From: a virus
Taxonomy: Duplodnaviria > Heunggongvirae > Uroviricota > Caudoviricetes
DNA length: 47,375 nt
IMG/VR virus record: IMGVR_UViG_2795385816_000003
Location: 71,520 to 118,894 of that record
Reading direction: 5' to 3' (one strand)
Below are positions 8,419-37,066 of the stretch, one piece after another; positions within the stretch are counted from its first letter, which is position 1; the number at the start of each line of letters is the position of its first letter. The notes under the pieces are model-generated. The model was not told the DNA's origin, did not search any database, and saw only the letters and a list, made by a program, of their open reading frames with translations. Made by a program: the position numbers and the translations under genes.

Positions 8419-8437
8419 CACCGCGTGGGCGTACTTT
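8419..8437 (+). promoter_or_regulatory. CAC-box promoter (CACCG-N8-TACTTT), leaderless to ATG 8445
   Basis: Shared motif; 7 nt from the -10 hexamer to the start codon. Confidence 0.65.
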
Positions 8438-8444
8438 CCTGGCC

Positions 8445-8699
8445 ATGGCCTCGGAAACCATTGACCCCTGCATGGCGTTGTTACCGGATACGGCGTTGGC
8501 GTTCGCGCTCGGTGTGCGGGTGGCTAGCCCGCAGTCGGTGTCAAACGTTGGGCAGGTGTCGACGTTGACCGCCGAGCTGCAGCGCCGCGGTGTGTACGAC
8601 GACATGCTGGCAGTGCTCGATCCTGAGTTGGCGGCGCGGATCGAGTTGTTGGACAGCGCGGATCGCGGCCAACGCTGGGCCCGCACTGGGCACAGGTGA
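8445..8699 (+). CDS. Phage hypothetical protein (84 aa; 3' part of track ORF 8157-8699)
   Basis: MASETIDPCMALLPD...; start chosen from the promoter motif. Confidence 0.65.
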   Translation: MASETIDPCMALLPDTALAFALGVRVASPQSVSNVGQVSTLTAELQRRGVYDDMLAVLDPELAARIELLDSADRGQRWARTGHR

Positions 8700-8717
8700 G
8701 AGGAGAGGAGTACTCCG

Positions 8718-8987
8718 TTGAGCACGTTCCATATCGACGTCTATCCGGTTGGAGTCCTGGAAGCTTGGCAGCACAGGCGAATTCCCGGGAAACTCGGCCA
8801 GTGTTGGCGCTACCTGCTCCACCAGGCTCGGCGTCGTAATTGGCGGGCGGTCCGCAATTCGTTCGGCGGCTACCACGCCGAACTGAGCGCAAGCGAGTAC
8901 GCAACCCGCTGTGGCCATGGTTGGACGAAGCGGCGTGCGATCACGGACTTGATCCGTATCGTCGCGCTCGACGCCGTCCACCTATGA
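8718..8987 (+). CDS. Phage hypothetical protein
   Basis: SD GAGGAG upstream of TTG; 89 aa. Confidence 0.65.
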   Translation: MSTFHIDVYPVGVLEAWQHRRIPGKLGQCWRYLLHQARRRNWRAVRNSFGGYHAELSASEYATRCGHGWTKRRAITDLIRIVALDAVHL

Positions 8988-9050
8988 CCCAGATCACCTG
9001 CAACGTAACGGTTTAGGGATTCGGCGCGTTCTCACTGGGCCGCTGGTGGT

Positions 9051-9629
9051 GTGTGGGCTTACGGTGGCGTTTGTGTGGTCGATGAACTCGATTCCGGTGC
9101 GCGCGGTTTGACGACGCCAGAGCGGTGGGAACCGGATACACAGATGGTTGCGGCGGTGCTTTCGTCCCCGAAATCGTTCCGCAAGATGACCGAGATGTGC
9201 GATCAGGACCGAGCCTGGCTCGTCGCTGGACTCACGGCCGCGGGTATGACGGCCCAAGACATCGCTGCTCGAACCGGCTGCAGCTTGCGCCTCATCCGCG
9301 CGATCCGCGCCGAGGACATGACGCAGGCGTTCGTGGTCGCGCAGCGGGAGGCGCGCGAGGTCAGCGACGAACTGCGTTTGGAGCGTATCGAACTCACGGC
9401 CACCCGACACGAGGCGGATCAGTCCAGGGCCGAAGCAGCGCGTCTGCGCACGCAGATCGATCAGCTTATCGATGCCCACCTGGCTGACACGCTCACGTTG
9501 TTCCGTTGCGGGCACGCGCAAGTCAAGTACAACGTGTACGAGCATGGCGGCCGCAAGTTCTGCCGCGAATGCGCGCGACTACGCAAGCAGGAGCAGCGCA
9601 AATCTAAGCGTCTAACTGCGGTGTCCTAA
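9051..9629 (+). CDS. HTH DNA-binding protein with coiled coil and Cys/His-rich C-terminus (start possibly GTG 9075)
   Basis: AGMTAQDIAARTGCSLRLIRAIR helix-turn-helix; CGH...CREC tail. Confidence 0.75.
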   Translation: MWAYGGVCVVDELDSGARGLTTPERWEPDTQMVAAVLSSPKSFRKMTEMCDQDRAWLVAGLTAAGMTAQDIAARTGCSLRLIRAIRAEDMTQAFVVAQREAREVSDELRLERIELTATRHEADQSRAEAARLRTQIDQLIDAHLADTLTLFRCGHAQVKYNVYEHGGRKFCRECARLRKQEQRKSKRLTAVS

Positions 9630-9660
9630 TTCTGTAGGACAGTTTCAGCGGGATCGGTTT

Positions 9661-9679
9661 CACCCCTTGTCCTTAGCGT
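9661..9679 (+). promoter_or_regulatory. CAC-box promoter (CACCC-N8-TAGCGT), near-leaderless to ATG 9688
   Basis: Shared motif; 8 nt to the start codon. Confidence 0.7.
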
Positions 9680-9687
9680 CGGCCACC

Positions 9688-10113
9688 ATGAACCTTGGTC
9701 TCGGACCCATCGTGCTGATCCTGATCATTTATGTGCTCGCTGTGATGCGACTCGTGCGGCTGATCAACTACGACACCATCCTGGATCCTGTGCGGCTGTG
9801 GATCGCTCACCGCGCGAACCTTGCGATGATCGCCGCCGATGAGGCGCGAACGGCCGGCCATCCGGTCACCGCGCAATCGCACACCCGCCGGATGGCGCGC
9901 TGGAACCTGCTGGCCGAATTCCTCGGATGCCCCTGGTGCGTGGGTTTTTGGCTGTCGCTGGCCGCCGCGGTGGCGCCAGTGCATCTCATCGGCTGGCCGT
10001 GGTGGGCTGTCTTCGGTGTGGCGCTGGCTTGTTCGTATGTCGTCGGGCTGGCCTCGCCGCTGACGGCCGACGAAATGGAGATCGTCAGCCGCGACGCGGA
10101 CGCCGGCCAGTAA
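9688..10113 (+). CDS. DUF1360-like membrane protein
   Basis: Hydrophobic segments, RLVRLI and LGCPWCVGFW motif. Confidence 0.75.
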   Translation: MNLGLGPIVLILIIYVLAVMRLVRLINYDTILDPVRLWIAHRANLAMIAADEARTAGHPVTAQSHTRRMARWNLLAEFLGCPWCVGFWLSLAAAVAPVHLIGWPWWAVFGVALACSYVVGLASPLTADEMEIVSRDADAGQ

Positions 10114-10114
10114 A

Positions 10115-10133
10115 CACCCTGCACAGTTACCGT
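10115..10133 (+). promoter_or_regulatory. CAC-box promoter (CACCC-N8-TACCGT), leaderless to portal GTG 10141
   Basis: Shared motif; 7 nt to the start codon; no SD. Confidence 0.7.
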
Positions 10134-10140
10134 CTGCGAC

Positions 10141-12042
10141 GTGGCCGCCCAAGACTTGCGTGTTGTTCGACGCCGTAGAGGCGACGCGTTGACGGCCTCT
10201 GCGCCGCGCGCCCTGACCGCAGCGAGCACCCCCGTAACCAACTCGGCCCAGATCTTCCAGGCCGGATCGGTCGGCCGCCGGAACAACTGGCAGGCCGAAG
10301 CCTGGGAGATGTACCGGGCAGTCGGCGAGCTGCGCTACTACGTTGGATGGCGCGCCAACTCATGCTCACGAGTCCGATTCGTGGCCTCCGAAATCGACGC
10401 CGACACCGGTGAGCCAACCGGAAGCATCGCCGAGGACAACCGTGAGGGACAACGGGTCACCGAGATCGTCCGCAAGATCGCCGGCGGCAGGCTAGGGCAG
10501 GCGCAGCTGACTCGACGGGCCGCCGAATCGTTGACGGTCCCGGGTGAGCTGTGGATCGCGATCCTGATGCGGACCGAGGGCACCGACCAAAACCAGAGGC
10601 AGGTGGCCAAGTGGTATGCGGTCACGCGCAGAGAGATTGAACAAGGCCCACGAAGCAACACCGTGACGATCAAGCTGCCTGACGGCACAAAGCACGTGTT
10701 CGATCAGAGCAAGGGAGACGGCATGTTCCGGGTGTGGAACCCCGACGCCGAAGACGCGTCGCTGCCTGACTCGCCTGTGCAGGCGTGCTTGGACTCTCTG
10801 CGCGAGATCGTGCGCACCACGAAAAAGATCAAGAACGCGGATAACTCGCGCCTGCTGAACAATGGACTGCTGTTCGTGCCGTCGGAAGCCACATTGCCCG
10901 ATCAGCAGTCGCCGGTTGCGGCCGATAAACCCGGCGACTCGGCTCCGCAGCTGCAACCGGGCCGACGAGTCGCAGCCTCGCTGCAGCAGATGATCGTTCA
11001 GGTCGCCGAGACCGCGTCCAAGGACGAGAACAGCATGGCCGCCTTGGTCCCGATTGTGGCGGCTGCGCCTGGCGATCACCTGGCGAAGATCAATCACCTT
11101 GAGTTCGGCAAGGACGTTACCGACACGGCGCTGAACACTCGGGAGAAGGCGATCGCTCGGCTAGCGACGGGGTTGGACATGTCCCGGGAGCGGCTGCTTG
11201 GGCTGAGTACTGGAAACCATTGGTCCGCTTGGGCTATCGATGATCAGGACGTGCAGGTGCACGTCAAGCCCGTCATGGAAATCATCTGTCACGCGATCTA
11301 CGAGTCGGTTCTTCGCGGGATGTTGATTGATGAGGGAATCGACCCTGACAAATACATTCTCTGGTACGACGCATCGGCCCTGACGTCCGATCCGGATCTG
11401 ACCGACGAGACGAAGGACGCGTTCGAGAAGGGAGCGGTTACAAGCGAATACCTGGTACGGACCTATGGGATTCCTGATGACGCAATGTATGACTTCACCA
11501 GTTTGGAGGGCTGGCAGCAGTGGGCGCAGGACAGGGTGAGTCAAGATCCCACGCTGCTGCGTGAACTGCTGCCCCTACTCGATAGTTCGGTGCAGGGCAT
11601 CGAGTTCCCTGAGCCCGTTGCAGCGCTGCCGCCCGGCCAAGGCGACGGGGAAGAGGACGCGTCGGGTGCTGAGCAGCAGCAGGAACCGGACACCGAGGAC
11701 GACGGCAGCGGTGTGCAGGCCAGCGCGCGGGCCAACGTGGAACTTGCGGTGGTGGATCTGATGGTGGGCCGCGCTCTCGAGTTGGCCGGCAAGCGACGCG
11801 TCCGCACGAATGATCGTGAGCAGCACGCGCGGCTCAAGGGCATCCCGACGCACGAATATCACCGGTACATGGGCCCGGTCGACGAGCCGGAAGTATCGCG
11901 GCTGATCAAAGGATGGGACAGCATCCTGAGTGATTCGGCCTTGTCGGGGTTGGGGATTGATTCGGAGCGCGTCCGGGACAGCGTGCGCAGGATCGCGCGC
12001 CAGCAGCTCACCAGTGAGGTCGTCGACGGGCAGGTGCTCTGA
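10141..12042 (+). CDS. Portal protein
   Basis: 633 aa, position after terminase, cluster-B-like portal features (WQAEAW..Y..VGELRY; NHWSAW). Confidence 0.85.
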   Translation: MAAQDLRVVRRRRGDALTASAPRALTAASTPVTNSAQIFQAGSVGRRNNWQAEAWEMYRAVGELRYYVGWRANSCSRVRFVASEIDADTGEPTGSIAEDNREGQRVTEIVRKIAGGRLGQAQLTRRAAESLTVPGELWIAILMRTEGTDQNQRQVAKWYAVTRREIEQGPRSNTVTIKLPDGTKHVFDQSKGDGMFRVWNPDAEDASLPDSPVQACLDSLREIVRTTKKIKNADNSRLLNNGLLFVPSEATLPDQQSPVAADKPGDSAPQLQPGRRVAASLQQMIVQVAETASKDENSMAALVPIVAAAPGDHLAKINHLEFGKDVTDTALNTREKAIARLATGLDMSRERLLGLSTGNHWSAWAIDDQDVQVHVKPVMEIICHAIYESVLRGMLIDEGIDPDKYILWYDASALTSDPDLTDETKDAFEKGAVTSEYLVRTYGIPDDAMYDFTSLEGWQQWAQDRVSQDPTLLRELLPLLDSSVQGIEFPEPVAALPPGQGDGEEDASGAEQQQEPDTEDDGSGVQASARANVELAVVDLMVGRALELAGKRRVRTNDREQHARLKGIPTHEYHRYMGPVDEPEVSRLIKGWDSILSDSALSGLGIDSERVRDSVRRIARQQLTSEVVDGQVL

Positions 12043-14399
12043 TGTGGCCTGAGCGTGGGGAGGCGCTGTCCCGGACGATCGAGGCCGAAGCAGCGATCAG
12101 CGACCTGTACGCGGAGACGTTGCGGCGCTGGGCGCCGGAGGCGCGCGCTGCTGTGCTGCCCGCACTGACCGCGGCGGCTGCGTTACCCCCGGACCCTGAC
12201 GCCGTCTCACAGACCCAAAGCATGTGGGACCAGCACTCCGAAGCCATCATCATGACTGGCCTCGGCATCTTGTGGGCAGCGTCGGTGTACGAAGCCACGA
12301 TCGGCCTGGGCGGCGCAGTCGCCGACGTAGTTGTGCCCGACCTCGACACCGTCGTGCTAGCCATCGTGCTCGGCTCGCTGCTCATGTCCCGCAAGGAAAT
12401 CGCTGCCGCCATCGCCCATGTCGAAACTAACCCGGCGCTCGCCGCTGCGCGCGATGACTTCCTGGCCAGCCGCCGCGACAATATCGCGGCTACACCCGCG
12501 ATGGTGCGAGCCAAGATGGAAGCCGCGCTCGCCGAACCGACGCTGACCTTGTCAGTGACCCCCGAGGACCGACCTGAGGTGTTGCGCGCCAGGGCGGCCG
12601 AAGTCCTGGAGCCGTCGTCAAACGAAATGCGTGACCTGGCCCGCCAGCGCGGGTACCAGGCCGCCGATGTGCTCAACAACGCGGTTGTCGCCGCTGCGGC
12701 GCAGTCGGAAGAGTCCGCAGGGCTGGAGAAGACGTGGATCTGCACCCTGGATGGCAAGACCCGGCCGACGCATTGGGCCGCTGACGGGCAGCGAGTGCCG
12801 CTCAAGGGTCACTTCACCGTTGGCGGTGAGCAGCTGTTCGTCCCGGGCGATATGTCGGCTTCGCCCGCGGAGTGGAAGAACTGCCGGTGCCGCGTCGGCA
12901 TTCTCGCGGCCGGCGAAGAGCTGCCGGACGAGGTCGATCGGCACACTGAGCGCCTCGACGGCCGGGATTCGGTGGCAGTCAACCGTGATGGGCGCACCCA
13001 GGCAGAGGAAATTGGGCGCCGAGACAAGGCAGGCAATGTGCGTGCCCGTGACACCGAGGACGGTATCGGGCGCGTGGCGTCCGGCGGCTGGGCCGCATCG
13101 AGTGAACAGGAGTACGAAATGGCTGAAGACACAGGGACCTATTTGACGTTTACCGACGCGCTATTCGCGGTGACCGGTACTCCGACGTCGGATGGTCGGA
13201 TGCTTGCAGCCGACATTGAGCTAGCCTTCCGCGACACCCCTATGCCGTTGCAGTGGTGCGAGAAAATGGAAGGCGGCCACTACGGGTCCGTCACCGTGGG
13301 AGTCATCGAGGCGATTCGGTTCAAAGACGGCGAGGTTCGTGCGGACGGCTACATGCTCAACAACGACAACGCCATCAAAGCGATCGACCTAGTGAGTCAT
13401 GGTGTGTGCAATCCGTCCGTGGATCTGGGTGATGTCACGATGGTCGCCACGTACCAAGACGGCACAGTAGTGACAGAGGAAAACTACGACCCTGACCGCG
13501 AGATATTCGCCACTACAACGGCTGCCGAAGTACTCGCCACCACCATCGTGGCCATCCCTGCATTCGGGCAGACAAGGTTTGCCCTGAACGCCGAACGCGA
13601 GGCGCGCGACAAGGCACTGGTTGCGTCGATGGCCGCGAAATTCCAACCACGCGTGTACGCCCCGGTCTTGTTCTCCGACCCCGGGCTCGCTGGACCCACT
13701 CCGCTGTCGATCGACCCCGAAACGGGGCGGATCTTCGGACATGTAGCCACCTTCAATGAAAAGCATCGTTCCGTTGGCCTCGGGCATATCTCGCCTCCGC
13801 GGTCGCACACCGGGTATGCACACTTTCACTCGTCGCCGCCGGTGCGCCTTTCCGATGGCACTGAACTATCGGTGGGTCGGCTGACCGTGGGCATCGGACA
13901 CGCACCGGTGTCTGGAGTGAGCAACGCAGAAGCTCAGGCGCACTACGACAACGCCGAGGCGTGCTTTGCGCTCGTACGAGCAGGCGAGGACGCGCACGGA
14001 ATTTGGGTGTCGGGTGTCGCGGCTCCGTGGGCCACGCAGGAGAAGATCGAGATGGGCTTGGCTGCACCACTGTCGGGTGACTGGCGGCCCTACGGTGGTT
14101 CGCTGGAGCTTGTTGCCGTGCTGGCAGTCAACACGCCGGGATTCCTGTGCCGCAGAACAACTGACTCACAAGGCAACCCGTTGTCGTTGGTGGCTTCCAT
14201 GTCGCCGCGCCCGGGAGCGTCCGGCACTACAGCGCTGTCTCGCGATGACATCAAGGCAGCCGTCACCGAAGCCTTGGCCGAATCCGCCCATGCTGCCAAG
14301 CGGACCGCGCTGCTCACGCGTGCGACATTGGCCGTTGGGGATCTGCCGCCGGAACCATCGCCGGCCGAGCGGATGAGCCAACTGTTGGAGCGTGCCTGA
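12042..14399 (+). CDS. MuF-like head morphogenesis protein fused to capsid maturation protease
   Basis: KTW..TLD.KTR.TH...DGQ...GD...NCRC MuF motif followed by a protease-like domain (TSDGRML...H.GS..VG). Confidence 0.85.
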   Translation: MWPERGEALSRTIEAEAAISDLYAETLRRWAPEARAAVLPALTAAAALPPDPDAVSQTQSMWDQHSEAIIMTGLGILWAASVYEATIGLGGAVADVVVPDLDTVVLAIVLGSLLMSRKEIAAAIAHVETNPALAAARDDFLASRRDNIAATPAMVRAKMEAALAEPTLTLSVTPEDRPEVLRARAAEVLEPSSNEMRDLARQRGYQAADVLNNAVVAAAAQSEESAGLEKTWICTLDGKTRPTHWAADGQRVPLKGHFTVGGEQLFVPGDMSASPAEWKNCRCRVGILAAGEELPDEVDRHTERLDGRDSVAVNRDGRTQAEEIGRRDKAGNVRARDTEDGIGRVASGGWAASSEQEYEMAEDTGTYLTFTDALFAVTGTPTSDGRMLAADIELAFRDTPMPLQWCEKMEGGHYGSVTVGVIEAIRFKDGEVRADGYMLNNDNAIKAIDLVSHGVCNPSVDLGDVTMVATYQDGTVVTEENYDPDREIFATTTAAEVLATTIVAIPAFGQTRFALNAEREARDKALVASMAAKFQPRVYAPVLFSDPGLAGPTPLSIDPETGRIFGHVATFNEKHRSVGLGHISPPRSHTGYAHFHSSPPVRLSDGTELSVGRLTVGIGHAPVSGVSNAEAQAHYDNAEACFALVRAGEDAHGIWVSGVAAPWATQEKIEMGLAAPLSGDWRPYGGSLELVAVLAVNTPGFLCRRTTDSQGNPLSLVASMSPRPGASGTTALSRDDIKAAVTEALAESAHAAKRTALLTRATLAVGDLPPEPSPAERMSQLLERA

Positions 14400-14578
14400 T
14401 GGGGTGCGGATGCCGCAGGGGCACACGCGCCGGTTCGGTCACGTCTTCCGGTGCGACGGTGCAGAGTTTCGAATACACCGCGCCAGATAAGACGGTCACT
14501 TCGTTCCTGACGCTCATTGAGGCCAAGAAGGAACAACGCCGAAATGGTGGCGGCACCATCAAGCTCATCACCAACTGA
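14399..14578 (+). CDS. 59-aa MGCGC-type phage protein (not in ORF track)
   Basis: TGATG overlap; MGCGCRRGTRAGSVTSSGATVQSFEYTAPDKTVTSFLTLIEAKKEQRRNGGGTIKLITN*. Confidence 0.75.
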   Translation: MGCGCRRGTRAGSVTSSGATVQSFEYTAPDKTVTSFLTLIEAKKEQRRNGGGTIKLITN

Positions 14579-14610
14579 GTTTCTTAAAGGCTTTTAACCG
14601 CAGAGGGATT

Positions 14611-14643
14611 CCCGCAGGTCTTTGACCTGCGGGTTTCTCTTTT
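14611..14643 (+). terminator. Rho-independent terminator
   Basis: CCCGCAGGTC-TTT-GACCTGCGGG followed by TTTCTCTTTT. Confidence 0.8.
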
Positions 14644-14669
14644 GGCGGCTGCTACTTGAAAAGCGTGTG

Positions 14670-14688
14670 CACGCACCGTCTCTACGTT
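14670..14688 (+). promoter_or_regulatory. CAC-box promoter (CACGC-N8-TACGTT) for the major capsid gene (leadered)
   Basis: Shared motif directly after a terminator; SD CAGGAG before GTG 14777. Confidence 0.65.
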
Positions 14689-14776
14689 CTGCGGCCAAGA
14701 GAGTTCCTGTCATGCGCTATGTGCCGGGGAGCGATCGAACAGACCGAGAGTTTCACTCTGAGAACAGGAGCACGCA

Positions 14777-16561: not shown

Positions 16562-16587
16562 CGGAGCCCGGCGAATCGCATTGGACG

Positions 16588-16632
16588 AGGCGGGCGGACG
16601 TGAACAACCGAGGCATTCACGTCCGCCCGCCT
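16588..16632. repeat. 17-bp inverted repeat between the two capsid genes
   Basis: AGGCGGGCGGACGTGAA / TTCACGTCCGCCCGCCT, 11-nt loop, no U tract. Confidence 0.85.
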
Positions 16633-16657
16633 TCCCGGCAGAGAGGAATCGCGCCAC

Positions 16658-17431
16658 ATGACCGCAGCACTATCCCCGGTGCAGTTTGACGCACCGTTGG
16701 TCAACCCGGCACCCAACGGGCTCGTCGCTGCCACCCAGTGGGTCGACGAGAGCGGTCCGCTGCGCTGGCTGCCGTCCGGTGTCGAGTTCCGGGTCTTCAA
16801 CTACGGCGGCGGCACCCAGTTCGGCGTCTGGAGCGCAGCATGGAACGCCACCGAGTCTGAGCTCAAACCCGCCGATGTCAAAAAGGGTGAGCGTCCTGCC
16901 TTCCTAGATGCGTTCATTGCGCAGACCACGTACGCATCGGACGACTGCAGTCTGCTCAAGCGGAGCCGCGATGAGATCCGGGTCCGGGCACAGCAAGTAC
17001 ACCGCGTGCTGGAGCCTATCCAGACGGAGAAAACGCTCGCGGCCCGCATGCTGCTCGATGCCGGGACGCCTGCGGCTAAGACGGGAATCGTGGCAGCTAT
17101 CGGCGCCATCGAGGGGCTGATCGCGGACACCGGCACCGTCGGGGTCATTCACGCGTCGGCGGAGTTGGCCGCCCCTGCCGCACAGGCGAATCTGATCCGC
17201 TACAACAACGGCCGGCTGGTTTCACCGCTGGGTAACACCTGGGTGTTCGGCGGCGGTTACGTCTCGGCGCTGGGCTCCAAGCTGATCGCTACCAGCCCCA
17301 CCTACGGATGGCGCGGACCAGTGGAGCTGCGCGATGCGCCGAGCCTGCAGCACAACGAATTCAAGGCCATCGCCGAGCGGTCGCTGGTCGTCGGATATGA
17401 GGCGCTGATCGGCGCCGTGAACATCACGTAG
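16658..17431 (+). CDS. Second capsid protein (cluster-B pentamer type)
   Basis: 257 aa directly after the capsid gene; size, position and composition match the B-like second capsid gene. Confidence 0.65.
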   Translation: MTAALSPVQFDAPLVNPAPNGLVAATQWVDESGPLRWLPSGVEFRVFNYGGGTQFGVWSAAWNATESELKPADVKKGERPAFLDAFIAQTTYASDDCSLLKRSRDEIRVRAQQVHRVLEPIQTEKTLAARMLLDAGTPAAKTGIVAAIGAIEGLIADTGTVGVIHASAELAAPAAQANLIRYNNGRLVSPLGNTWVFGGGYVSALGSKLIATSPTYGWRGPVELRDAPSLQHNEFKAIAERSLVVGYEALIGAVNIT

Positions 17432-17445
17432 AAGGGTTGGACGTC

Positions 17446-18490: not shown

Positions 18491-18492
18491 TG

Positions 18493-18511
18493 CACCCCGT
18501 CCTTTTACTGT
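18493..18511 (+). promoter_or_regulatory. CAC-box promoter (CACCC-N8-TACTGT) for the major tail gene (leadered)
   Basis: Shared motif; SD AGGAGG before ATG 18578. Confidence 0.7.
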
Positions 18512-18577
18512 TCGCCGCAGCCTCGGAAAACGTAATGGACCGGCGCGAAGCGCCTGATAGCAGGAGGAAGCCAGCAC

Positions 18578-19636
18578 ATGGCATTCGCAGTCGTTAAGGG
18601 CTATGCGCTCCGCGTGACCAAGGTGGATTCGTGCGGTCTGCCCATCCAGGGCAACGCCAACCGCATCGTCACCGAGGGATTCATTCGGGTCAACCTGGAT
18701 CCGAATATGAAGGAAGCCAACGAGATCACCCAAGAGAACGCCGCGGGCAAGGAGTGCGTCAGTGATCGCACCCCGGCCGAACGCCGTTGGTGGAACACCG
18801 AACTGCAGCTGTGCGGCGTTGACCCCGACCTGTGGTCGCTGATCCTCGGCTGGGCGCGGGTGCTCGACCATGAGGGCAACCCGATCGGCGTGATCGACAG
18901 CAAGTCCGTCGATGACAAGTCGGGCGTCATGTTCGAGATCTGGACTGGCGGCCAGGGCGACGACGACTGCCCCGAGCCGCTGGATGACTCGATCTTCTCC
19001 GCGGCGGCATCCGGACGCCAATACGGCTATCTCGCTTTTGCGGGCAATGAGTTCGTCTCGGGCGCAATCCCTGTTGGCGCCGAAGCGTCGAACTTCACCT
19101 TGACGGGTCGCACGATCGCGCCCAAGCGCTGGGGACGGGGCCCGTACAACGTGGCCGCGATCGACCCCGCCGGCACACCGGGGCGTCTGCTGGTTCCCAT
19201 GTACAGCAAGCCCTCGGACAACCACCTGATCCTGTTCCGGACCCCGGTGCCGCCGCCGGCGCCCACCGAAGGTGCGTGCGAGCTGGCGGTGCAGTCGATC
19301 TTCACCGGACCAGGTAAGGCGTACTTCGGTGTGGACGCCGCTGATGTGGCTCCGCCGCAGCCGATCTGCAACCCGAAGACGTACACCGTCGCGGTCACCG
19401 GCACCGGGAACTGGAAGGCCAAGGTCGACACTGAGCCGACCGCCGACATCGCCGCCACCGCGCTGCCCGCGGCGGTGCAGTCGGCGATCGAGGCGCTGCC
19501 CAACGTCGAGGTGGGCCAGGTCCAGGTCTCCGGTACGGCAGGCAGCTACACCGTGAAGCTCGACCCGGCTCTGGGGGCGCTTAGCGCCGACAGCACGGGC
19601 CTGACTGGCGGTGCCGCCACCGTCACACCGGCGTAG
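18578..19636 (+). CDS. Major tail (tube) protein with C-terminal extension
   Basis: LRVTKVDSCG...ENAAGKEC B-like tail tube pattern; strong SD; terminator follows. Confidence 0.85.
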   Translation: MAFAVVKGYALRVTKVDSCGLPIQGNANRIVTEGFIRVNLDPNMKEANEITQENAAGKECVSDRTPAERRWWNTELQLCGVDPDLWSLILGWARVLDHEGNPIGVIDSKSVDDKSGVMFEIWTGGQGDDDCPEPLDDSIFSAAASGRQYGYLAFAGNEFVSGAIPVGAEASNFTLTGRTIAPKRWGRGPYNVAAIDPAGTPGRLLVPMYSKPSDNHLILFRTPVPPPAPTEGACELAVQSIFTGPGKAYFGVDAADVAPPQPICNPKTYTVAVTGTGNWKAKVDTEPTADIAATALPAAVQSAIEALPNVEVGQVQVSGTAGSYTVKLDPALGALSADSTGLTGGAATVTPA

Positions 19637-19649
19637 AGGAGCAGGCGAG

Positions 19650-19686
19650 CGAAACGCCCGGGGTGTCACGGCCCCCGGGCGTTTCG
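19650..19686 (+). terminator. Terminator hairpin after the major tail gene
   Basis: CGAAACGCCCGGGG / CCCCGGGCGTTTCG. Confidence 0.75.
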
Positions 19687-19697
19687 TCATGTGTAAG

Positions 19698-19716
19698 CAC
19701 CCCCGACTCCTACCGT
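19698..19716 (+). promoter_or_regulatory. CAC-box promoter (CACCC-N8-TACCGT), leaderless to ATG 19724
   Basis: Shared motif just after a terminator; 7 nt to the start codon. Confidence 0.7.
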
Positions 19717-19723
19717 GTGCCCC

Positions 19724-21006: not shown

Positions 21007-21019
21007 GAGAGGGTGCGCT

Positions 21020-21758: not shown

Positions 21759-21791
21759 CCAACTATTCACTGCGAGTGAATCGTTCGGCTG

Positions 21792-21810
21792 CACCCCTGC
21801 TCGGCACGCT
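21792..21810 (+). promoter_or_regulatory. CAC-box promoter (CACCC-N8-CACGCT), leaderless to ATG 21818
   Basis: Shared motif with a degenerate -10; 7 nt to the start codon. Confidence 0.55.
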
Positions 21811-22324: not shown

Positions 22325-22343
22325 CACCCCACCTCGCTAGCTT
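22325..22343 (+). promoter_or_regulatory. CAC-box promoter (CACCC-N8-TAGCTT), leaderless to tape measure GTG 22350
   Basis: Shared motif; 6 nt to the start codon; no SD. Confidence 0.7.
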
Positions 22344-29380: not shown

Positions 29381-29383
29381 GCG

Positions 29384-30421: not shown

Positions 30422-32784
30422 GCCGAGTTCCAGGCCAGGCGCCGCGCACCGACCAGGAGTGGACACGCGAGGTGGCGCAGCGGCTCTCAGCACTCGAAAA
30501 TCCGCGAACAATCCGGGTGGGGAAGTGGGTTCTGTCCGCGGTCGCCGGCCGACTCATGGCGACCAGCCCCGGTGAAGTGCTTGAAGTCGGGCAGGAACCG
30601 ACGCCCGTTGCGGTTGATTTGAGCCAGCGCGGCAGCCAGGTTTCTGAGCAGGAGATCGCCGAGGCCGTCACGGGCGGCAATGGTAAGACGTTCAGCTCGA
30701 TCACCGACTGGTTGACGGCGAAGTGGTCGGAGCTCTCAAGTACGACGACGAATGCGAACACCGGACTCGGGAACTGGACGTCATGGCTCACCGGCGGCTC
30801 GTGGGCCAACGTCGGTGCCGCGGTGTCCGACTTCTTGAGCACCAAGAGCACTGCCGCGACAGCGGGGACCAATGCGGCTACAGGGCTGGGCAATTGGACA
30901 TCGTGGCTCAGTGGTGGATCGTGGGCGAACATTGCGGCGTCGGTGGCAGATTTCCTGGGAACCAAGTCGACGGCCAACACTGCGGGCACGAATGCCGCAA
31001 CCGCGATGGCCGACGCCAGCGCTGCCTCCACCGCGGCGGCAGCAGCGCAGAGCAACGCGCAGGGCGCCATCGATGCCGGCATCAACGCCATCCGCAACAC
31101 CCCGGGCGTCGTGGGTCAGGCAGTGGAGGGCTTCGCCGACGCGCTGGCTTCGATCCCCACCCAGCTGTTCAATCAGTTCGGCGGCAACAATGTGCCCCGG
31201 GCCTCCCAGGAGCAGGCCAACGCGGCGATGGCCGCCCTGGTCAACACGGTCAATTCCCAAGGCGCGGCGATCAATGCGCTGCAAAACATCCTCTCCGATG
31301 TCGGCGGATTCAGTGCCTCGATCACGTTTCGGCCCGCAGAAACCACCGTATTCACCGGTCCGGGCACCGCGCCGTGGACACCCCCGGCATGGGCGGCAGG
31401 CGGGTACGGCGAGTATGTGATCGCCCCGGCCGCCGGTGGCGGCGGTGCCGGTGAAGGCGGCTCGGGCGCATTCGGTGTCGGCGGCTACCCCGGAGCGTGG
31501 GCCACCGGCACCTTCCCCATCGAGGCTGGGGCGTATTCGATCTTCGCCGGGGGCGGCGGTCTGGGCGGGCAGAACGAGGGTCTGGGCTTCGGCGATAACG
31601 GCAGCCCTGGTGATACCTCGACGATCACCAGTCCCGCTGGCGCACCGGTGGCCTCGGCGGCGGGCGGCGCAGGCGGTGAGGGAGCGCGGCGCGGCGGCAG
31701 CGGGCAGAACGGTAAAACCATCAGCCCCCAAACCTTGTCGGCGTTCGGGGATGCCTTCACCGCCGGATCCGGGGGTACCGGCAACGCGGGCACCGGTGGC
31801 GTGGCAGGTGGCGGTGCGGGCGGTAACGGTGGCCTGTTCGGCAACTACACCAAGGGCGGCCTAGGTGGGCCGGCCAAGATCTGGATGCGCGCCCGCGCAC
31901 CGATCCCGGCGCAGTTCACCGCCATGGGCACCCTGATCTTGCCCACAGTCAAACTCAACACCGGGGTCGCCCAAACCGATTCGATGACCGCGGCCGGGCA
32001 GTGGCGCACCATCGCGCCCGGCGGGGCGGCAGGCGGCTACATGCTGATCATCCGCGCCAACACTGGGTTCACCGACTACGTCTATCTGCGGATCTGGGAT
32101 GTCTCCGGTGTCACGCACTACGAGCTGGGCCGCGTGGCGTCCGGGGCCAAGTCCGCATGGAAAACCGGCACGGTCGGGGCCGCGATCCCGTTCAACGCCT
32201 TCACCCTGACCTCCGATACCGCCCGCACCTTCACCGTCGGGGTCAACGGCACCGCATTCGACTCCTACAACGACTCCGGTGCCACCTCCCTGATGGGCGC
32301 GGCCTACCGCAGCGGCGGCTGGGCATCCTCCGATCCGGCGCTGCCCGGCTCGATGTCACAGTTCGCGTTCCTGGACACCGGCACCCCCGCCCGCATCGTC
32401 TCAGGCACCATCGCGACCACCCAAGGCACCAACAGCACCGCCGCCTACGTGGACCTGGCCACCCCCGGGCCCTCGGTCACCCTGAACGTTCCCGCCAGCG
32501 GGGAAGTCACCATCGATGTGTCGGCGGCCTACTCGGCCGGCGGGGCTGCCGCACAAACCGGATACATGGGCTGTGCGCTCTCGGGCGCCAACACCCGCGC
32601 CGCAACCGATGCCACCGCCGCCTACGGGCGCACCGTCACCGCGGGCCTTTACGGCACCCTGGCCCGCCGTATCCACCTCACCGGCCTCACCCCGGGCACC
32701 ACCACGTTCAAAGCCGTCTACAAAACCAGCACGAGCACCGCCACCTTCTCCGACCGCCACATCATCGTCGAACCCAAACCCTGA
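30418..32784 (+). CDS. Minor tail / receptor-binding protein with Gly-rich region
   Basis: 788 aa; GGxG repeats; beta-rich C-terminal modules. Confidence 0.8.
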   Translation: MSRVPGQAPRTDQEWTREVAQRLSALENPRTIRVGKWVLSAVAGRLMATSPGEVLEVGQEPTPVAVDLSQRGSQVSEQEIAEAVTGGNGKTFSSITDWLTAKWSELSSTTTNANTGLGNWTSWLTGGSWANVGAAVSDFLSTKSTAATAGTNAATGLGNWTSWLSGGSWANIAASVADFLGTKSTANTAGTNAATAMADASAASTAAAAAQSNAQGAIDAGINAIRNTPGVVGQAVEGFADALASIPTQLFNQFGGNNVPRASQEQANAAMAALVNTVNSQGAAINALQNILSDVGGFSASITFRPAETTVFTGPGTAPWTPPAWAAGGYGEYVIAPAAGGGGAGEGGSGAFGVGGYPGAWATGTFPIEAGAYSIFAGGGGLGGQNEGLGFGDNGSPGDTSTITSPAGAPVASAAGGAGGEGARRGGSGQNGKTISPQTLSAFGDAFTAGSGGTGNAGTGGVAGGGAGGNGGLFGNYTKGGLGGPAKIWMRARAPIPAQFTAMGTLILPTVKLNTGVAQTDSMTAAGQWRTIAPGGAAGGYMLIIRANTGFTDYVYLRIWDVSGVTHYELGRVASGAKSAWKTGTVGAAIPFNAFTLTSDTARTFTVGVNGTAFDSYNDSGATSLMGAAYRSGGWASSDPALPGSMSQFAFLDTGTPARIVSGTIATTQGTNSTAAYVDLATPGPSVTLNVPASGEVTIDVSAAYSAGGAAAQTGYMGCALSGANTRAATDATAAYGRTVTAGLYGTLARRIHLTGLTPGTTTFKAVYKTSTSTATFSDRHIIVEPKP
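30763..31002 (+). repeat. Two tandem 40-aa (120-bp) repeats within the minor tail gene
   Basis: GLGNWTSWLTGGSWANVGAAVSDFLSTKSTAATAGTNAAT / GLGNWTSWLSGGSWANIAASVADFLGTKSTANTAGTNAAT. Confidence 0.9.
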
Positions 32785-32815
32785 AAGACATCACCGCGAA
32801 AGGCACAGAGAAATC

Positions 32816-33127
32816 ATGGGATTCACCAACGCGACACCGCTGAAACAGACCACCTACCAGGCCATGTACTTCGACGGCACACCGCAGAGCGCCGCGCAGA
32901 CCTTGATGATGATCGACTCGCTGTTGACCGCCCGCAAGCTGCACTACGGCATCATCCACGGTTCCCAAGAAGTCGAAAACCCCACCGCGTGGCGTATCCA
33001 ACTCGCCCGCCGCGACGGATCAGCCGAACTCATCGCCATCGCCGACCGCTGGATCGTCGTTTCCTCGACCGGCCAAGTCCGAGTACTCACCCCCGCCGAC
33101 TACCGCGCCGAATTCGCCGTTGAGTGA
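32816..33127 (+). CDS. Hypothetical tail-associated protein (103 aa)
   Basis: ATG 32816 within track ORF 32516-33127; coupled to the next gene. Confidence 0.65.
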   Translation: MGFTNATPLKQTTYQAMYFDGTPQSAAQTLMMIDSLLTARKLHYGIIHGSQEVENPTAWRIQLARRDGSAELIAIADRWIVVSSTGQVRVLTPADYRAEFAVE

Positions 33128-33387
33128 CCGGCGCCGGCACCGCTGCTCGCTACCCTGCCGCCATGGACGGATACCTGCGCGGTTCGGTGAAGACCCACCC
33201 TGACTATCCCGAGAACCCGACCATCGCGCTGCGCAGCGTGTTTGACGACGACGACGCTACCGGCTGCAACTCGTGGCTGGTCGTCTCGGCGAGTTCTGGG
33301 GCGCTCTATCGCACGGAGTCGTTCGTCGCCGACTGGCCCGACGCAGACGGGCTGACGTTGACGACCACGCTCACCCCGGCTCCGTAG
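33124..33387 (+). CDS. Hypothetical protein (87 aa)
   Basis: GTGA overlap; ORF fills the gap in the operon. Confidence 0.6.
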   Translation: MTGAGTAARYPAAMDGYLRGSVKTHPDYPENPTIALRSVFDDDDATGCNSWLVVSASSGALYRTESFVADWPDADGLTLTTTLTPAP

Positions 33388-33390
33388 CCT
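33372..33390 (+). promoter_or_regulatory. CAC-box promoter (CACCC-N8-TAGCCT), leaderless to GTG 33398
   Basis: Shared motif overlapping the upstream stop; 7 nt to the start codon. Confidence 0.7.
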
Positions 33391-33397
33391 CACGGTC

Positions 33398-34039
33398 GTG
33401 CCGATCACGGAGTACACCGAGCCGAACGTCTGCATCGGGGAGAACCTCACCACCGATGCGGCCGGTCAGCTGCGGCTCCAACCGTGGGCGCTGGTACGCC
33501 CTGTGGTCGACATCCGGGCACTCTCCGGTGGTGACGGTTCGATCATCGCGCCGCTGATCGCGCTGCCAGGCAAGCTGCTGATCGACCAGAAAGCGTCCTG
33601 GCGCAACGATTCCCCGCTGCCGCAGATGGTGCTGATCCGCGTTACGCGCGGGCCGCGGTCATGGCTCACCTCGAACCCGAACGCTATCCAATTCCGCGAC
33701 CGGTGGACGACCGCGGTCGACACGGATGCCGCGATGCCGGTGACCACCGGCATCTACAACTCCCAGTGCGGATCGGCCTGGGACTTGGGAACGAACAGCG
33801 TCGCCGAGCCCAACCCTGGACGACAGTGGCGCTGGGCCGACGCCAACAGCATGGACGAATGGGTGGGCCCGATCGATCCAGGGGCCACGCTCAACCTCTG
33901 GTACCGCTGCTATGTGTGGACCCCGCCGCCGTGGTCGAACAACGCGAACAAGAATCAGCCGCAGCACGAGGCCCGCGCGAACTGGACGCGCATTGAAATG
34001 CGGGCCTTCCCGCAGCAGGGAAATGTGGTGACCGGATGA
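33398..34039 (+). CDS. Minor tail protein (paralogue 1 of 3)
   Basis: Shares the W/Y-x-N-x-(S/T)-P-x-P...V-(T/I)-R pattern with the next two genes. Confidence 0.7.
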   Translation: MPITEYTEPNVCIGENLTTDAAGQLRLQPWALVRPVVDIRALSGGDGSIIAPLIALPGKLLIDQKASWRNDSPLPQMVLIRVTRGPRSWLTSNPNAIQFRDRWTTAVDTDAAMPVTTGIYNSQCGSAWDLGTNSVAEPNPGRQWRWADANSMDEWVGPIDPGATLNLWYRCYVWTPPPWSNNANKNQPQHEARANWTRIEMRAFPQQGNVVTG

Positions 34040-34635
34040 GCGTCAAGGTGTGCACCTCGGAGTACATGCTCTCCACCGTCAACGGGCTCGACATGAGGCG
34101 AAACTGGTTCCCCAGCATCGTCGCTGAGCGATTCCTGCAGTCCAAGAAGGACGGGCAGATCAGCCGATCACCCGACCCGGTGACGATGATCGATGGTGAT
34201 CTCACCTACTTCAACAACACCCCAGACCCGGTGTACATCACCGTGCAAGTCATCCGGGCTCCCCGCAGCATCGTTGCCCAAAACCCGGGCACCGTAGTGA
34301 TTCACGACGCCTGGTCCTGGGCTGTCGGCAAGTCGCCCACAGCTGACTTTCCCTCGGTAATCCAGGACTCATTCGGCGGCAGGGGACAGGTGGACCGACC
34401 CGAAAACGCCGCGGACAAGCTGCTGTTCGGACGGTTCTTCGCTGACGGAGACAGCTCCCAAGCCTGGGTCAACGTCGGCCAACTCGACGCGCAGGATTCC
34501 TTGCACTTCCGATACCTGGCCGCTGTCCAAACCCCAGGCGTATGGACCACCCCTTCAGAGTTCGAGCCGCGCTGGGAAGCACAAGCCCGCTGGACTCGAC
34601 TGCTGGCGTTCGCGATGCCGGTTGGTTCGGCATGA
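34036..34635 (+). CDS. Minor tail protein (paralogue 2 of 3)
   Basis: ATGA overlap; YFNNTPDPVYITVQVIRAPR. Confidence 0.7.
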   Translation: MSVKVCTSEYMLSTVNGLDMRRNWFPSIVAERFLQSKKDGQISRSPDPVTMIDGDLTYFNNTPDPVYITVQVIRAPRSIVAQNPGTVVIHDAWSWAVGKSPTADFPSVIQDSFGGRGQVDRPENAADKLLFGRFFADGDSSQAWVNVGQLDAQDSLHFRYLAAVQTPGVWTTPSEFEPRWEAQARWTRLLAFAMPVGSA

Positions 34636-35912
34636 GCGAGCACTTTGCGATCGTCGGCGACGCCATCGCTCCGCAGCCCTGGATGCAGATGCGCCACCTC
34701 AAGGGCGCCGAAGTGCCTTCGGTGTCAAAGTCTTACGACACATCAGGTGGCGGCAACAAGAACGACGCAGTCCACGCTGTCGTGGTGTCCTGGACGAACA
34801 ACACCCCGATTCCGCAATCGGTCTACGGCATGGTGACCCGGGAGGGCGCCCAGGTGACGCTGCAGGCACGGTCCCGCGGCTACCTGCTCACCCTCCACGG
34901 CCGCGATATCACCGCAACCGCGGCGGTGCCGACATCGTGGGACATGGCCGAGGTCAGCAAGTTCGGTATCGGCGGCGACATCGGCAAGGGCGGAATCCTG
35001 GCTCTCGGCACCGGATTCGGGGTCAGCGAGATCCGGCAGAACTCCGCCAGCATCCCGTTGATGCCGCACTGGACCGGCTGGAGCATCGTGGCACCCGGGC
35101 AGACGTTCCACGGCCGGGTGGAGGTGCGGTTCCGGACGGACTTCTGGGAGAACACCTCGATCGATGGCGGTGACCAAAACACCGAGTCGGGCTTCATCTC
35201 CGGCGGCACCCGACTGGATCTCTACGCCACCCCGGTCATCGGTGAGCCACCTGTCTTGTCGACCCCCACGGTTGTCGGGATAGAGCACTCGGTGAACAAC
35301 ACCTTCCACACCGACGTCGATGTGCCCGCGGGCACTGCCTTAGGCGACTTGCTTATTGCGGTGGTATCCAACCAGTTCGGGCTCATCAGCGACATCAAGC
35401 CCGAGCAGACCGGCTGGACACAGGTCCACGCCCGCGACGGCGGCTGGGAAGACGCTCACATGAAGGTGTACGTGCGGGCCGCCAAAGCCACCGAACCGGC
35501 CTCCTACACGTTCGGCAACGGCTTACTGGCTGAGTCCATTGCACACCTGATCACCGTGCGCGGCGCCAACCCGCTGCTCGATGAGGGCTGGCAGTTCGCA
35601 TCGTCGCTACGCAAGAGATGGTGGGAACGCTATGACGGCCATATCTGCCCATCGATCGACCGCGCCGGACAACTGCTGCTGTTGGTGTCCTACATCCCGC
35701 ACAACGCGCTCCAAACCACGCTCACGCAGACCGTGCCGGCCGGGACGACGGAACTGGAGAACGTGGATGGGAACCTGGCATGCAGCGCGGTGGCCGCGCT
35801 GCCGAACCCGCCGCGGCCGACAGGGGAGCGCATGTTCGTCGCGTCGGAGGAACCGTCCTGGGCCGGCCGCTCCATCACGGCATCGATCCTGGTGCCCGGC
35901 ACGTTCCAGTAG
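34632..35912 (+). CDS. Minor tail protein (paralogue 3 of 3, with extra C-terminal domain)
   Basis: ATGA overlap; WTNNTPIPQSVYGMVTR; C-terminal VPAGT..GDLLIAVV beta domain. Confidence 0.7.
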   Translation: MSEHFAIVGDAIAPQPWMQMRHLKGAEVPSVSKSYDTSGGGNKNDAVHAVVVSWTNNTPIPQSVYGMVTREGAQVTLQARSRGYLLTLHGRDITATAAVPTSWDMAEVSKFGIGGDIGKGGILALGTGFGVSEIRQNSASIPLMPHWTGWSIVAPGQTFHGRVEVRFRTDFWENTSIDGGDQNTESGFISGGTRLDLYATPVIGEPPVLSTPTVVGIEHSVNNTFHTDVDVPAGTALGDLLIAVVSNQFGLISDIKPEQTGWTQVHARDGGWEDAHMKVYVRAAKATEPASYTFGNGLLAESIAHLITVRGANPLLDEGWQFASSLRKRWWERYDGHICPSIDRAGQLLLLVSYIPHNALQTTLTQTVPAGTTELENVDGNLACSAVAALPNPPRPTGERMFVASEEPSWAGRSITASILVPGTFQ

Positions 35913-35931
35913 TTGCGCCTCGGAGGTTCAC

Positions 35932-36288
35932 ATGTACGACCCGCCAGACAGTTTCGACGACATGCTCGGTGACGCGGACCTGGCCCCGCAGACGGGCCCG
36001 TTCGTCCCGCTCGAAGTCCCCGGTGTCGGGGTTGTCAGGGCGCGCCGGCCGATGCCCAACGCCGTGCCGGTGCTGGCCATGTCGGTGAACGCCAAGATCG
36101 ATGTTGTCGAGAAACAGGGCTACCTGACACTGTTCCTGCAGAACCACCTGGAATCCGGCGAGCACGAACGCATCTTGGTCACCATGATGGGCGGCGAACT
36201 GCCGGCCGACAGCATGGGCAGGGTTGCCCGCGCGATAGCGACATGGGGCACGGCCCGCCCTACCTTGCCGTCATCACGCTCAGTGTGA
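35932..36288 (+). CDS. Second tail assembly chaperone (gpG-like paralogue)
   Basis: SD GGAGG; RRPMPNAV..L...KQGYLTLFLQNHL aligns with RVPTPQAM..L...KNEISGLFIARHL of 21818-22324. Confidence 0.65.
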   Translation: MYDPPDSFDDMLGDADLAPQTGPFVPLEVPGVGVVRARRPMPNAVPVLAMSVNAKIDVVEKQGYLTLFLQNHLESGEHERILVTMMGGELPADSMGRVARAIATWGTARPTLPSSRSV

Positions 36289-36614
36289 TGGCGGCTACTC
36301 ACTGGCGGGCGATTCGGACCCGAATGCGGGGCGACGGTATCGCCGATCCGATGCGGCAGCTGCCGCACATGCACGCACTGATCGACGAAGCCGAGAAGGT
36401 GTGGCTGGAAGCCCTGCACACCGGCAACGAGGAAAAGGACAAGCGCGAGCGCGAGCAGCTGTTGGACCGGCTGTACGCGCCGACCACAGACGGCGCCGAG
36501 ACGCTGAACGGCGACGGATACCAAGCCAAACGCACGCCGCCGCCCGGGTTTGAAGATCCGGCCGAGGTCGAGGCTAACTTCGATGCGGTCGCGCGGGCTT
36601 TCGGCGGCCGGTAG
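36288..36614 (+). CDS. gpT-like tail chaperone domain (frame open from 36243; possible -1 frameshift fusion)
   Basis: TGATG overlap; HW...G..DP...LP...REQLLDRLYAP resembles actinophage gpT regions. Confidence 0.55.
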   Translation: MAATHWRAIRTRMRGDGIADPMRQLPHMHALIDEAEKVWLEALHTGNEEKDKREREQLLDRLYAPTTDGAETLNGDGYQAKRTPPPGFEDPAEVEANFDAVARAFGGR

Positions 36615-36617
36615 TTG

Positions 36618-36636
36618 CACGCCGCCGCCCTAGCCT
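36618..36636 (+). promoter_or_regulatory. CAC-box promoter (CACGC-N8-TAGCCT), leaderless to ATG 36644
   Basis: Shared motif; 7 nt to the start codon; no SD. Confidence 0.65.
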
Positions 36637-36643
36637 GCCCGGC

Positions 36644-37066
36644 ATGGCGAAGGTGGCGCAGGTGGTCCCGTATCTCGACATGTCGGCCCCGCGCGGCCAG
36701 CGCCTCGCACCAGAGATGCGCGAAGAGATCGCCGAAGTCGCGCCCTCGACCCTGAACGACGGCGCGGTCAAGACAGCGAAGCTGGCCGAAGGCGCCGTCA
36801 CCGAACCGAAACTGGCTGCCGGAGCGGTCACATCGCCCAAGATCGCGTCGAAGGGCGTCAAGGCCGTCAACATCGACGACGCTGCCGTTGGCACAGCCCA
36901 GCTGGCCGCTGGTGCTGTCACCGCAGCCAAGGCCGGCGTCGGTGTTGTCACTGCCCACGACAGCGCAGGCAACGCCATCAAGCTCGACGCAGTGCCCATG
37001 ACCTCGACCGACTACACAGCGCTGACGACCAAAGAACCCAACGTCCTCTACCTGCTGAGCGACTGA
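36644..37066 (+). CDS. Minor tail/fibre protein with AVT-x-x-KLA repeats
   Basis: GAVKTAKLAEGAVTEPKLAAGAVTSPKIA... 10-aa periodicity. Confidence 0.7.
   Translation: MAKVAQVVPYLDMSAPRGQRLAPEMREEIAEVAPSTLNDGAVKTAKLAEGAVTEPKLAAGAVTSPKIASKGVKAVNIDDAAVGTAQLAAGAVTAAKAGVGVVTAHDSAGNAIKLDAVPMTSTDYTALTTKEPNVLYLLSD

Follow-up and report, generated by a model that had tools for sequence, protein, structure and literature searches.

How late genes are controlled is essentially unknown for most mycobacteriophages, and the question is raised in a particular form by a stretch of 47,375 nucleotides (hereafter the window; positions 71,520 to 118,894 of IMG/VR virus record IMGVR_UViG_2795385816_000003), which makes up the right 47 kb of a provirus record 118.9 kb long. 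The window is 96-97% identical to prophiT48-1, T36-1, T49-1 and T46-2, prophages of Cluster MabL of Mycobacterium abscessus (PMC9934374), prophiT48-1 being its closest GenBank relative. Spread along its virion-assembly genes, whose order and proteins resemble those of phage Dori and of the Cluster B mycobacteriophages, are eleven copies of a short module in which a box of the form CAC(C/G)(C/G) is followed, after exactly 8 nt, by a -10 hexamer. We consider it probable that these eleven modules are bipartite late promoters, giving mostly leaderless mRNAs, and that the box is read by a phage factor that adapts the SigA-RNA polymerase.

The initial annotation of this DNA had listed ten copies, all of which are present where it placed them; an eleventh, at 33138, had been missed. 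The hexamer is TANNNT in 10 of the 11 modules and CACGCT in the remaining one, and all copies lie on the coding strand of late genes. The modules, and two terminators that lie among them, are as follows.

8419-8437, plus strand: module 1, CACCG-N8-TACTTT, 7 nt before ATG 8445 (gene 51, DUF7423), with no Shine-Dalgarno sequence (SD)
9661-9679, plus strand: module 2, CACCC-N8-TAGCGT, 8 nt before ATG 9688 (gene 53, DUF1360)
10115-10133, plus strand: module 3, CACCC-N8-TACCGT, 7 nt before GTG 10141 (portal); the box begins 1 nt after the preceding stop
14670-14688, plus strand: module 4, CACGC-N8-TACGTT, then about 80 nt of leader, in which an SD (AGGAG) lies, and the major capsid GTG 14777
18493-18511, plus strand: module 5, CACCC-N8-TACTGT, then about 60 nt of leader, in which an SD (AGGAGGAAG) lies, and the major tail ATG 18578
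19698-19716, plus strand: module 6, CACCC-N8-TACCGT, 7 nt before ATG 19724 (head-to-tail adaptor); the best-scoring module of all
21792-21810, plus strand: module 7, CACCC-N8-CACGCT, with a -10 that starts with C, 7 nt before ATG 21818 (tail assembly chaperone)
22325-22343, plus strand: module 8, CACCC-N8-TAGCTT, 6 nt before GTG 22350 (tape measure), with a box that directly adjoins the preceding stop codon
33138-33156, plus strand: module 9, CACCG-N8-TACCCT, 6 nt before ATG 33163; 12.3 bits
33372-33390, plus strand: module 10, CACCC-N8-TAGCCT, 7 nt before GTG 33398 (gene 74); gene 73 has its stop codon within the -10
36618-36636, plus strand: module 11, CACGC-N8-TAGCCT, 7 nt before ATG 36644 (gene 79, tail-fibre-like in relatives)
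14611-14643, plus strand: intrinsic terminator with a 10-bp GC stem (14611-14633) and a T-tract (-30.9 kcal/mol, z -5.4), closing the portal-protease unit
19650-19688, plus strand: strong hairpin terminator after the major tail gene (-36.2 kcal/mol, z -5.8)

Is this recurrence more than the composition of the DNA would provide? The pattern CAC(C/G)(C/G)-N8-TANNNT has 10 matches in the window, all on the plus strand, where 2.4 would be expected and 100 shuffles gave at most 7; this count includes 33138 and excludes 21792, where the -10 is CACGCT. The rest of the 118.9-kb record holds 1 further match. The initial annotation had allowed that the motif might be no more frequent than background at this spacing, which is not what these counts show, and a scan of spacings from 0 to 20 nt places the enrichment at N8 only, CACCC occurring 6 times at N8 and at most once at any other spacing. 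When all 5-mers at spacings of 0-25 nt were counted before the 56 TANNNT hexamers of the plus strand, CACCC at 8 nt came out on top with a count of 6, the runners-up were its own overlaps (ACCCC at 7 and GCACC at 9), and the maximum reached 6 or more in 1 of 200 second-order Markov simulations. Furthermore, a weight matrix trained on other genomes only recovered all ten TANNNT sites at 12-23 bits on the plus strand, with 1 comparable match on the minus strand and 0 in the left 71.5 kb of the record.

A matrix of 30 sites carries 0.8-2.5 bits per position in the box and the -10 and zero information 5' of the box, where a -35 element would lie, and a scan with the sigma-70 consensus found promoters to be no commoner than chance. 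The box is 6-7 bp long and asymmetric and ends exactly 8 bp 5' of the -10. It occupies about -27 to -21, a place that falls, as first described, between those where a -35 and a -10 usually lie. The motif itself stands; its extended form, first given as about (G/T)CACCCC-N7-TANNNT, is better written as (A/T)GCACCC-N8-TA(C/G)NNT. The likeness to the GACAC boxes of WhiA that had been drawn is weak, there being no GACAC consensus: the base before CAC is G in 20 of the 30 sites, and the base preceding that is A or T. By analogy, the precise precedent for the position of the box is the "-26 element" found in PafBC hybrid promoters and not WhiA.

As far as the comparison of sequences can take us, the strongest evidence for the module is its conservation across lineages. 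The comparison covered phages Dori (L002) and Argie (L008), prophages of three other mycobacterial species (L010, L011 and L012) and Gordonia phage Sour, all with portal proteins 48-68% identical to that of the window, together with Rosebush, Oline, Athena and Acadian of Cluster B. At least seven further lineages of phages or prophages carry the module at these gene junctions, with box, -10 and spacing conserved and with spacers and flanks that vary. Dori has only patchy nucleotide identity to the window and contains 12 copies at 8 nt and 0 at other spacings, all on the coding strand, which precede the DUF1360 gene, the portal, capsid, tail tube, adaptor and tape measure genes and further late genes including the endolysin; Argie has 7. 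Among the combinations of 5-mer and spacing, CACCC at 8 nt ranks first, alone or jointly, in Dori (8 copies) as well as in L010, L011, L012 and Sour; in Argie (5) it is second to the overlapping GCACC at 9 nt (6). At the portal junction, pairwise identity among nine genomes is 0.91 in the box and 1.0 at the T, A and T of the -10, with 0.48 in the spacer and 0.36 in the discriminator. Among the cluster-B-like phages and related prophages to which the initial annotation had pointed, the full module is thus present in Dori, Argie, L010-L012 and Sour, and a weaker GCAC form in Cluster B, where the -10 and the leaderless-type start are kept at the same junctions and the box is shortened to GCAC(C/G) or lost.

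Single junctions follow the same course. Orthologous copies were located for module 2 (Dori 3248, L010 8448, L011 8965), module 8 (Dori 17390, Argie 19479), module 10 (Dori 30852) and module 11 (Dori 34092), and at the tape measure junction the -10 and the start are also retained in Rosebush, Oline, Athena, Acadian and Sour. Even the deviating hexamer of module 7 recurs, since at the second tail assembly chaperone junction a -10 that starts with C is present in three lineages, as CACGCT in the window (21805-21810) and in Dori (L002, about 16783-16788) and as CACTAT in Argie (L008, about 18887-18892); this may be a deliberately weak promoter. The comparative evidence therefore supports the core of what had been proposed for this locus, a class of late promoters that are mostly leaderless and carry an extra box which implies a dedicated factor.

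Where would transcription from these modules begin? In nine of them the -10 sits 6-8 nt 5' of an ATG or GTG that lacks an SD, with C at position -1 in eight of the nine, and the module lies 0-33 nt after the preceding stop. The distance from box to start codon is 26 nt in six cases and 25 and 27 nt once each, as had been noted. This geometry agrees with that of mapped leaderless promoters of mycobacteria, in which TANNNT is found a few bases before a purine start codon that is itself +1 (Cortes et al. 2013, PMC3898074). Genes without a module overlap the previous stop or carry an SD. The copies at the capsid and tail-tube genes instead feed leaders with SDs, at 107 and 85 nt from the start codons, again as originally observed, and this leadered layout is conserved in Dori, Argie and Rosebush (module 4 orthologues at 8403, 10744 and 12412; module 5 orthologues at 13243, 15605 and 17600, respectively). 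Since these two copies are 85-107 nt from the start and precede the genes' own SDs, they fit a transcription signal and not a translation signal. The statement that two copies come directly after terminators also held, both terminators being strong by computation and followed by the capsid module (module 4) and by module 6; the restart after a terminator and the fixed 8-bp link between box and -10 likewise argue for a transcription signal. Within the leaders, an agagagtt stretch (capsid leader, 14689-14776) and a gcctcgg stretch (tail-tube leader, 18512-18577) are conserved in Dori, Argie and Rosebush and could be RNA-level signals.

The position of the modules also bears on annotated start codons. 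Four starts had been put forward as corrections, and two of them, 19724 and 21818, differ from the prophiT48-1 annotation and are supported by conservation across phages; the other two, 8445 and 9688, are already annotated in prophiT48-1. In GenBank relatives the adaptor is annotated from a GTG inside the -10 of module 6; read from the start predicted here, the Dori and L012 proteins open with M-(S/G)-C-(D/E)-W-P, and the same module is present in L011. GenBank starts inside or 5' of a module include those of the Dori portal (TTG 3691 versus GTG 3709), the Dori capsid (GTG 8393, before the box at 8403), prophiT48-1 genes 63 and 67 and Dori 14673. Starts that lie inside or upstream of a promoter module have probably been annotated too far upstream.

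Taken as promoters, the modules would work as follows. The -10 hexamer TA(C/G)NNT is of the host type and would presumably be recognised by SigA, the housekeeping sigma factor, through its region 2, with the box (A/T)GCACCC at about -27 to -21 replacing the -35 element. At nine modules transcription would start at the start codon itself and produce leaderless mRNAs, and at the capsid and tail-tube modules, with predicted starts at about 14695 and 18518, it would produce transcripts whose leaders carry strong SDs. The promoters would split the 30-kb virion and lysis array into units, two of them restarting transcription right after terminators, and a phage-encoded protein that adapts the SigA-RNA polymerase to box-bearing promoters would turn them into a late switch.

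Several points weigh against this proposal. The RNA data comprise three RNA-seq runs as contigs (X1-X3) and one raw-read run with 0 reads on this stretch; the contigs are assembled from uninduced cultures of a relative with 95-99% identity and cannot show starts. One contig runs through module 1 from upstream. Contig depth drops to approximately 0 past 19748, after the hairpin at 19650-19688, in keeping with a terminator there, but it is then approximately 0 on the 3' side of the best-scoring module (19698) as well, which means either that the modules are not all equally active there or that leaderless units are weakly expressed. Depth is highest on genes 51-52 (25-38, versus 2-22 elsewhere in 16 kb); if this is lysogenic expression, it is a poor fit with gene 52, our candidate for the box-binding factor (see below), acting alone as a sufficient late activator. 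Since a recognisable -35 is missing from most mycobacterial promoters in any case, the -10 hexamers may be active by themselves without a factor. Finally, module 9 is ambiguous: a relative annotates gene 73 from GTG 33124, overlapping the previous stop, and the module at 33138 may lie within a coding region.

If the box is bound, which protein would bind it? PafBC-dependent promoters have, besides a canonical -10, a "-26 element" (-23 to -28) but no -35; PafBC inserts between the DNA and SigA region 4, PafB reads a GTC triplet of the box, and the authors suggested that such sigma adaptation may be more general in mycobacteria (PMC8635444). With these RecA-NDp promoters the phage module shares the missing -35, the TANNNT hexamer, an asymmetric element in -21 to -28 and the same 8-nt gap. 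It differs from them in its box, (A/T)GCACCC and not TGTCRGTG, and in its targets, which are late genes and not DNA repair genes, most copies being placed for leaderless mRNAs. Since the GTC triplet is missing, the phage box is not, by its sequence, a PafBC site. The host motif, which we take to be TGTCRGTG-N8-TANNNT, was counted in the genomes of the hosts of prophages L010-L012 (G001-G003, 21 Mb in all) and occurs 21-26 times per genome versus 0-1 for the control; in many of them the spacer is GGTCGTAC/GGTCGAAC and the -10 is TAGTGT, a recurrence suggestive of a repeated element. The full phage pattern has 15 matches in the same 21 Mb, about half of them on prophage-bearing contigs and the rest at control level, so that the comparison with host sequence proposed at the outset reveals no host regulon in these three genomes. 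No WYL domain or PafBC-like protein was found in the record. Since the host genomes have no regulon for the phage box and the record has no WYL protein, a phage-encoded adaptor is the most economical reading, and a box at the position of the PafBC "-26 element" without a host regulon is most likely read by a phage-encoded protein.

The same evidence makes it unlikely that a host component shared by Mycobacterium, Mycobacteroides and Gordonia, either a transcription factor or an alternative sigma factor, reads the box, with no phage factor taking part. The presence of the same box in phages of three host genera would be accounted for in this way, and PafBC demonstrates that -26 elements with this spacing exist in these bacteria; however, the three host genomes contain no such regulon, the box lacks the triplet that PafB reads, and we know of no mycobacterial sigma consensus that matches it.

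We give little credence to the opposite arrangement, in which the -10 hexamers would be ordinary -10-only SigA promoters and the box an operator for a negative regulator (a phage repressor or timing factor) that silences the late promoters, loosely like the Cluster A stoperators. It is consistent with the usual absence of a -35 from mycobacterial promoters (PMC3898074), with the co-orientation of the modules and their spread through the virion operon in short intergenic gaps, as for stoperators (PMC9934374), and with the seemingly good representation of gene 52 in RNA from uninduced cultures. However, the 8-bp gap is invariant in every lineage while the sequence of the gap drifts, as expected of RNA polymerase contact geometry, and a roadblock needs no such constancy; the obligately lytic Cluster B phages retain both the architecture and the gene-52 family; and the box is asymmetric and measures only 6-7 bp. 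Stoperators, repressor sites of temperate phages, are 13-14 bp long and stand in no set relation to a -10 (PMC9934374), whereas the phage box is locked 8 bp from one and is present in lytic phages too.

That the module acts on RNA, as a start-associated sequence directing translation initiation, re-initiation or processing of one long polycistronic late transcript, is very improbable, since the placing of nine of the eleven copies directly before SD-less starts and 0-33 nt after the previous stop, as with the start-associated sequences of Cluster K, and the contig that runs through module 1 have to be set against two copies 85-107 nt upstream of genes with their own SDs, conserved letters that are the T-A-N-N-N-T of a sigma -10 with a variable middle, two copies right after terminators, where read-through RNA should be scarce, and an element with no SD-like or rRNA-complementary core. 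Start-associated sequences are described as containing a ribosome-binding site and as abutting start codons in every case, 3-8 bp before them. The phage modules, like them (PMC3203893) and like the stoperators (PMC9934374), are short, asymmetric, co-oriented repeats in short gaps between genes; they differ from the start-associated sequences in the lack of an SD-like core and in the two copies at 85 and 107 nt.

For a late-promoter box read by a phage-encoded protein, the leading candidate for that protein is encoded within the array itself.

9075-9629, plus strand: gene 52 (phrog_928), candidate box-binding factor, with a putative sigma-region-4/LuxR-like helix-turn-helix (HTH), a long coiled-coil helix and a C..H..CxxC zinc ribbon

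We suggest only tentatively that the gene-52 protein is the factor that reads the box. It is 64% identical to Dori gp5, and each of the examined genomes that bear the motif, all six CACCC genomes among them, has a homologue adjoining the late genes or lying upstream of them; homologues occur in 521 phage records. The AlphaFold model is confident (predicted local distance difference test score, pLDDT, 89) and comprises a small HTH domain made of helices, a helix of 55 residues and a zinc ribbon in which H147, C163 and C166 are invariant. HTH_23 matches the protein at 18.9 bits, below the Pfam cut-off of 24.6, a PDB profile search returned FixJ and DosR at E 0.5-1, and the best Foldseek rows, weak ones, were LuxR/FixJ and extracytoplasmic function (ECF) sigma region 4 domains, of a kind that recognises 5-6 bp as a monomer. 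In the recognition helix, CSLRLVRxIRAE, Arg78 is kept where the box is CACCC and lost in four Cluster B subclusters where the box is GCAC. Gene 52 has a -10-like hexamer of its own (9060-9065) with no box, and its upstream region in most genomes likewise has a -10 and a leaderless-type start with no box. A fuller version is possible but doubtful: the phrog_928 family (gene 52, Dori gp5, Rosebush gp68) would be a sigma adaptor whose HTH reads GCACCC at about -26 and whose coiled coil and zinc ribbon dock on the SigA-RNA polymerase, and in more than 500 sequenced actinobacteriophages, Cluster B and M. abscessus prophages among them, every late gene would in this way be switched on as a leaderless transcript.

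Here, too, there are points on the other side. All structural matches of gene 52 are statistically insignificant (E of 0.25 or higher), and descent of the virion module as a whole from one ancestor confounds the link of gene 52 with the box, the covariation of Arg78 and box being a single phylogenetic split. A MabK prophage that has a gene-52 homologue also has a Cluster B-like portal and protease, and therefore gene 52 and the virion module are not separated there. Gene 52 might instead be a small terminase: it adjoins the terminase in MabL, Dori and Argie, and one weak Foldseek row was the Bacillus cereus phage protein 2ao9, which we take to be small-terminase-like. Against this role, the Cluster B homologue closes a block of non-structural genes that is remote from the terminase, and in Acadian another gene is annotated as the small terminase.

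Other proteins were considered as well. WhiB is encoded in MabL, Dori and Argie and was rejected as the common factor, the MabL protein being only 41% identical to that of Dori and having no tblastn match in Argie at E 1e-3; a protein so poorly conserved is a poorer candidate for reading an invariant box. The only other non-structural protein found to be common to all CACCC genomes is phrog_26247, a Cys-rich protein of 94 residues (G000:C1:68693-68977; L021:2694-2975). It has a CxLCD..G..CxH motif, is present in MabL, Dori, Argie and three related prophages, and its motif recurs at the C-terminus of the neighbouring RepA-like protein. For Sigma70_r4_2 the record gave only weak sub-threshold matches, the better of which (E 6e-4) lies in the HTH of a resolvase. 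The D29 gp53 family (PF25684) had no match in the record, the same search being without a match in all control genomes as well.

Around genes 51 and 52 the DNA is mosaic. Homology to prophiT48-1, to the prophage of the RNA-seq runs and to other MabL prophages starts exactly at 8414, 5 nt 5' of the box of module 1, a boundary that coincides with the promoter edge of that module. Between the two genes, a 288-bp segment (8697-8984), which holds an open reading frame of 89 aa (8718-8987), is absent from other MabL prophages; the RNA-seq contigs of the relative join 8696 straight to 8985, and the gap in prophiT48-1 is 87 nt there.

How does the module compare with other known systems? A phage box that replaces the -35, works with host sigma recognition of the -10 and times phage genes is also a feature of the T4 middle promoters (MotA box and AsiA, sigma appropriation). 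These differ in that the MotA box has its centre near -30 and stands 11-13 bp away from the -10, in needing two phage proteins and in having a proteobacterium as host. They are cited as related in the PafBC study (PMC8635444). Leaderless SigA promoters of mycobacteria (PMC3898074) and the predicted leaderless promoters of Cluster O phages (PMC4351075) have, like the phage modules, TANNNT a few bases before a purine start that serves as +1 and no SD. Neither group has a conserved box 8 bp upstream. The mycobacterial promoters also have no conserved -35, and those of Cluster O are SigA-like with -35 elements (PMC4351075); the box is the defining, lineage-wide feature of the phage modules. D29 gp53-gp52 is an RNA-polymerase-binding module that is reported essentially from Cluster A only and for which no promoter motif is described (bioRxiv 10.64898/2026.10.05.756390). 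As in the idea put forward here for gene 52, a mycobacteriophage HTH protein is proposed to take over the host RNA polymerase at its sigma-binding surface.

There are precedents for each component, for leaderless promoters, for activators of phage late genes and for hybrid promoters of the -26 type. The initial annotation knew of no description of the motif, and in the literature searched, which was incomplete, we likewise found none for the box, for late promoters in Cluster B, Dori or MabL phages, or for viral sigma adaptation. The module provides a concrete, testable promoter model for a very large set of phages: for all of Cluster B, for the Dori and Argie groups, for MabL and related clinical M. 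abscessus prophages and for some Gordonia phages. It predicts exact transcription start sites, corrects GenBank starts that were placed inside the promoter (such as those of the adaptor here and of the Dori portal and adaptor) and would explain how virion genes without an SD are expressed within a long array. If the factor is phage-encoded, it would make a compact, orthogonal and inducible promoter/activator pair for mycobacterial genetics and therapeutic phage engineering, and sigma adaptation, so far known for PafBC only, would also be a viral strategy. Should the reading of phrog_928 as a sigma adaptor be true, this family would be the first viral counterpart of PafBC-type sigma adaptation.

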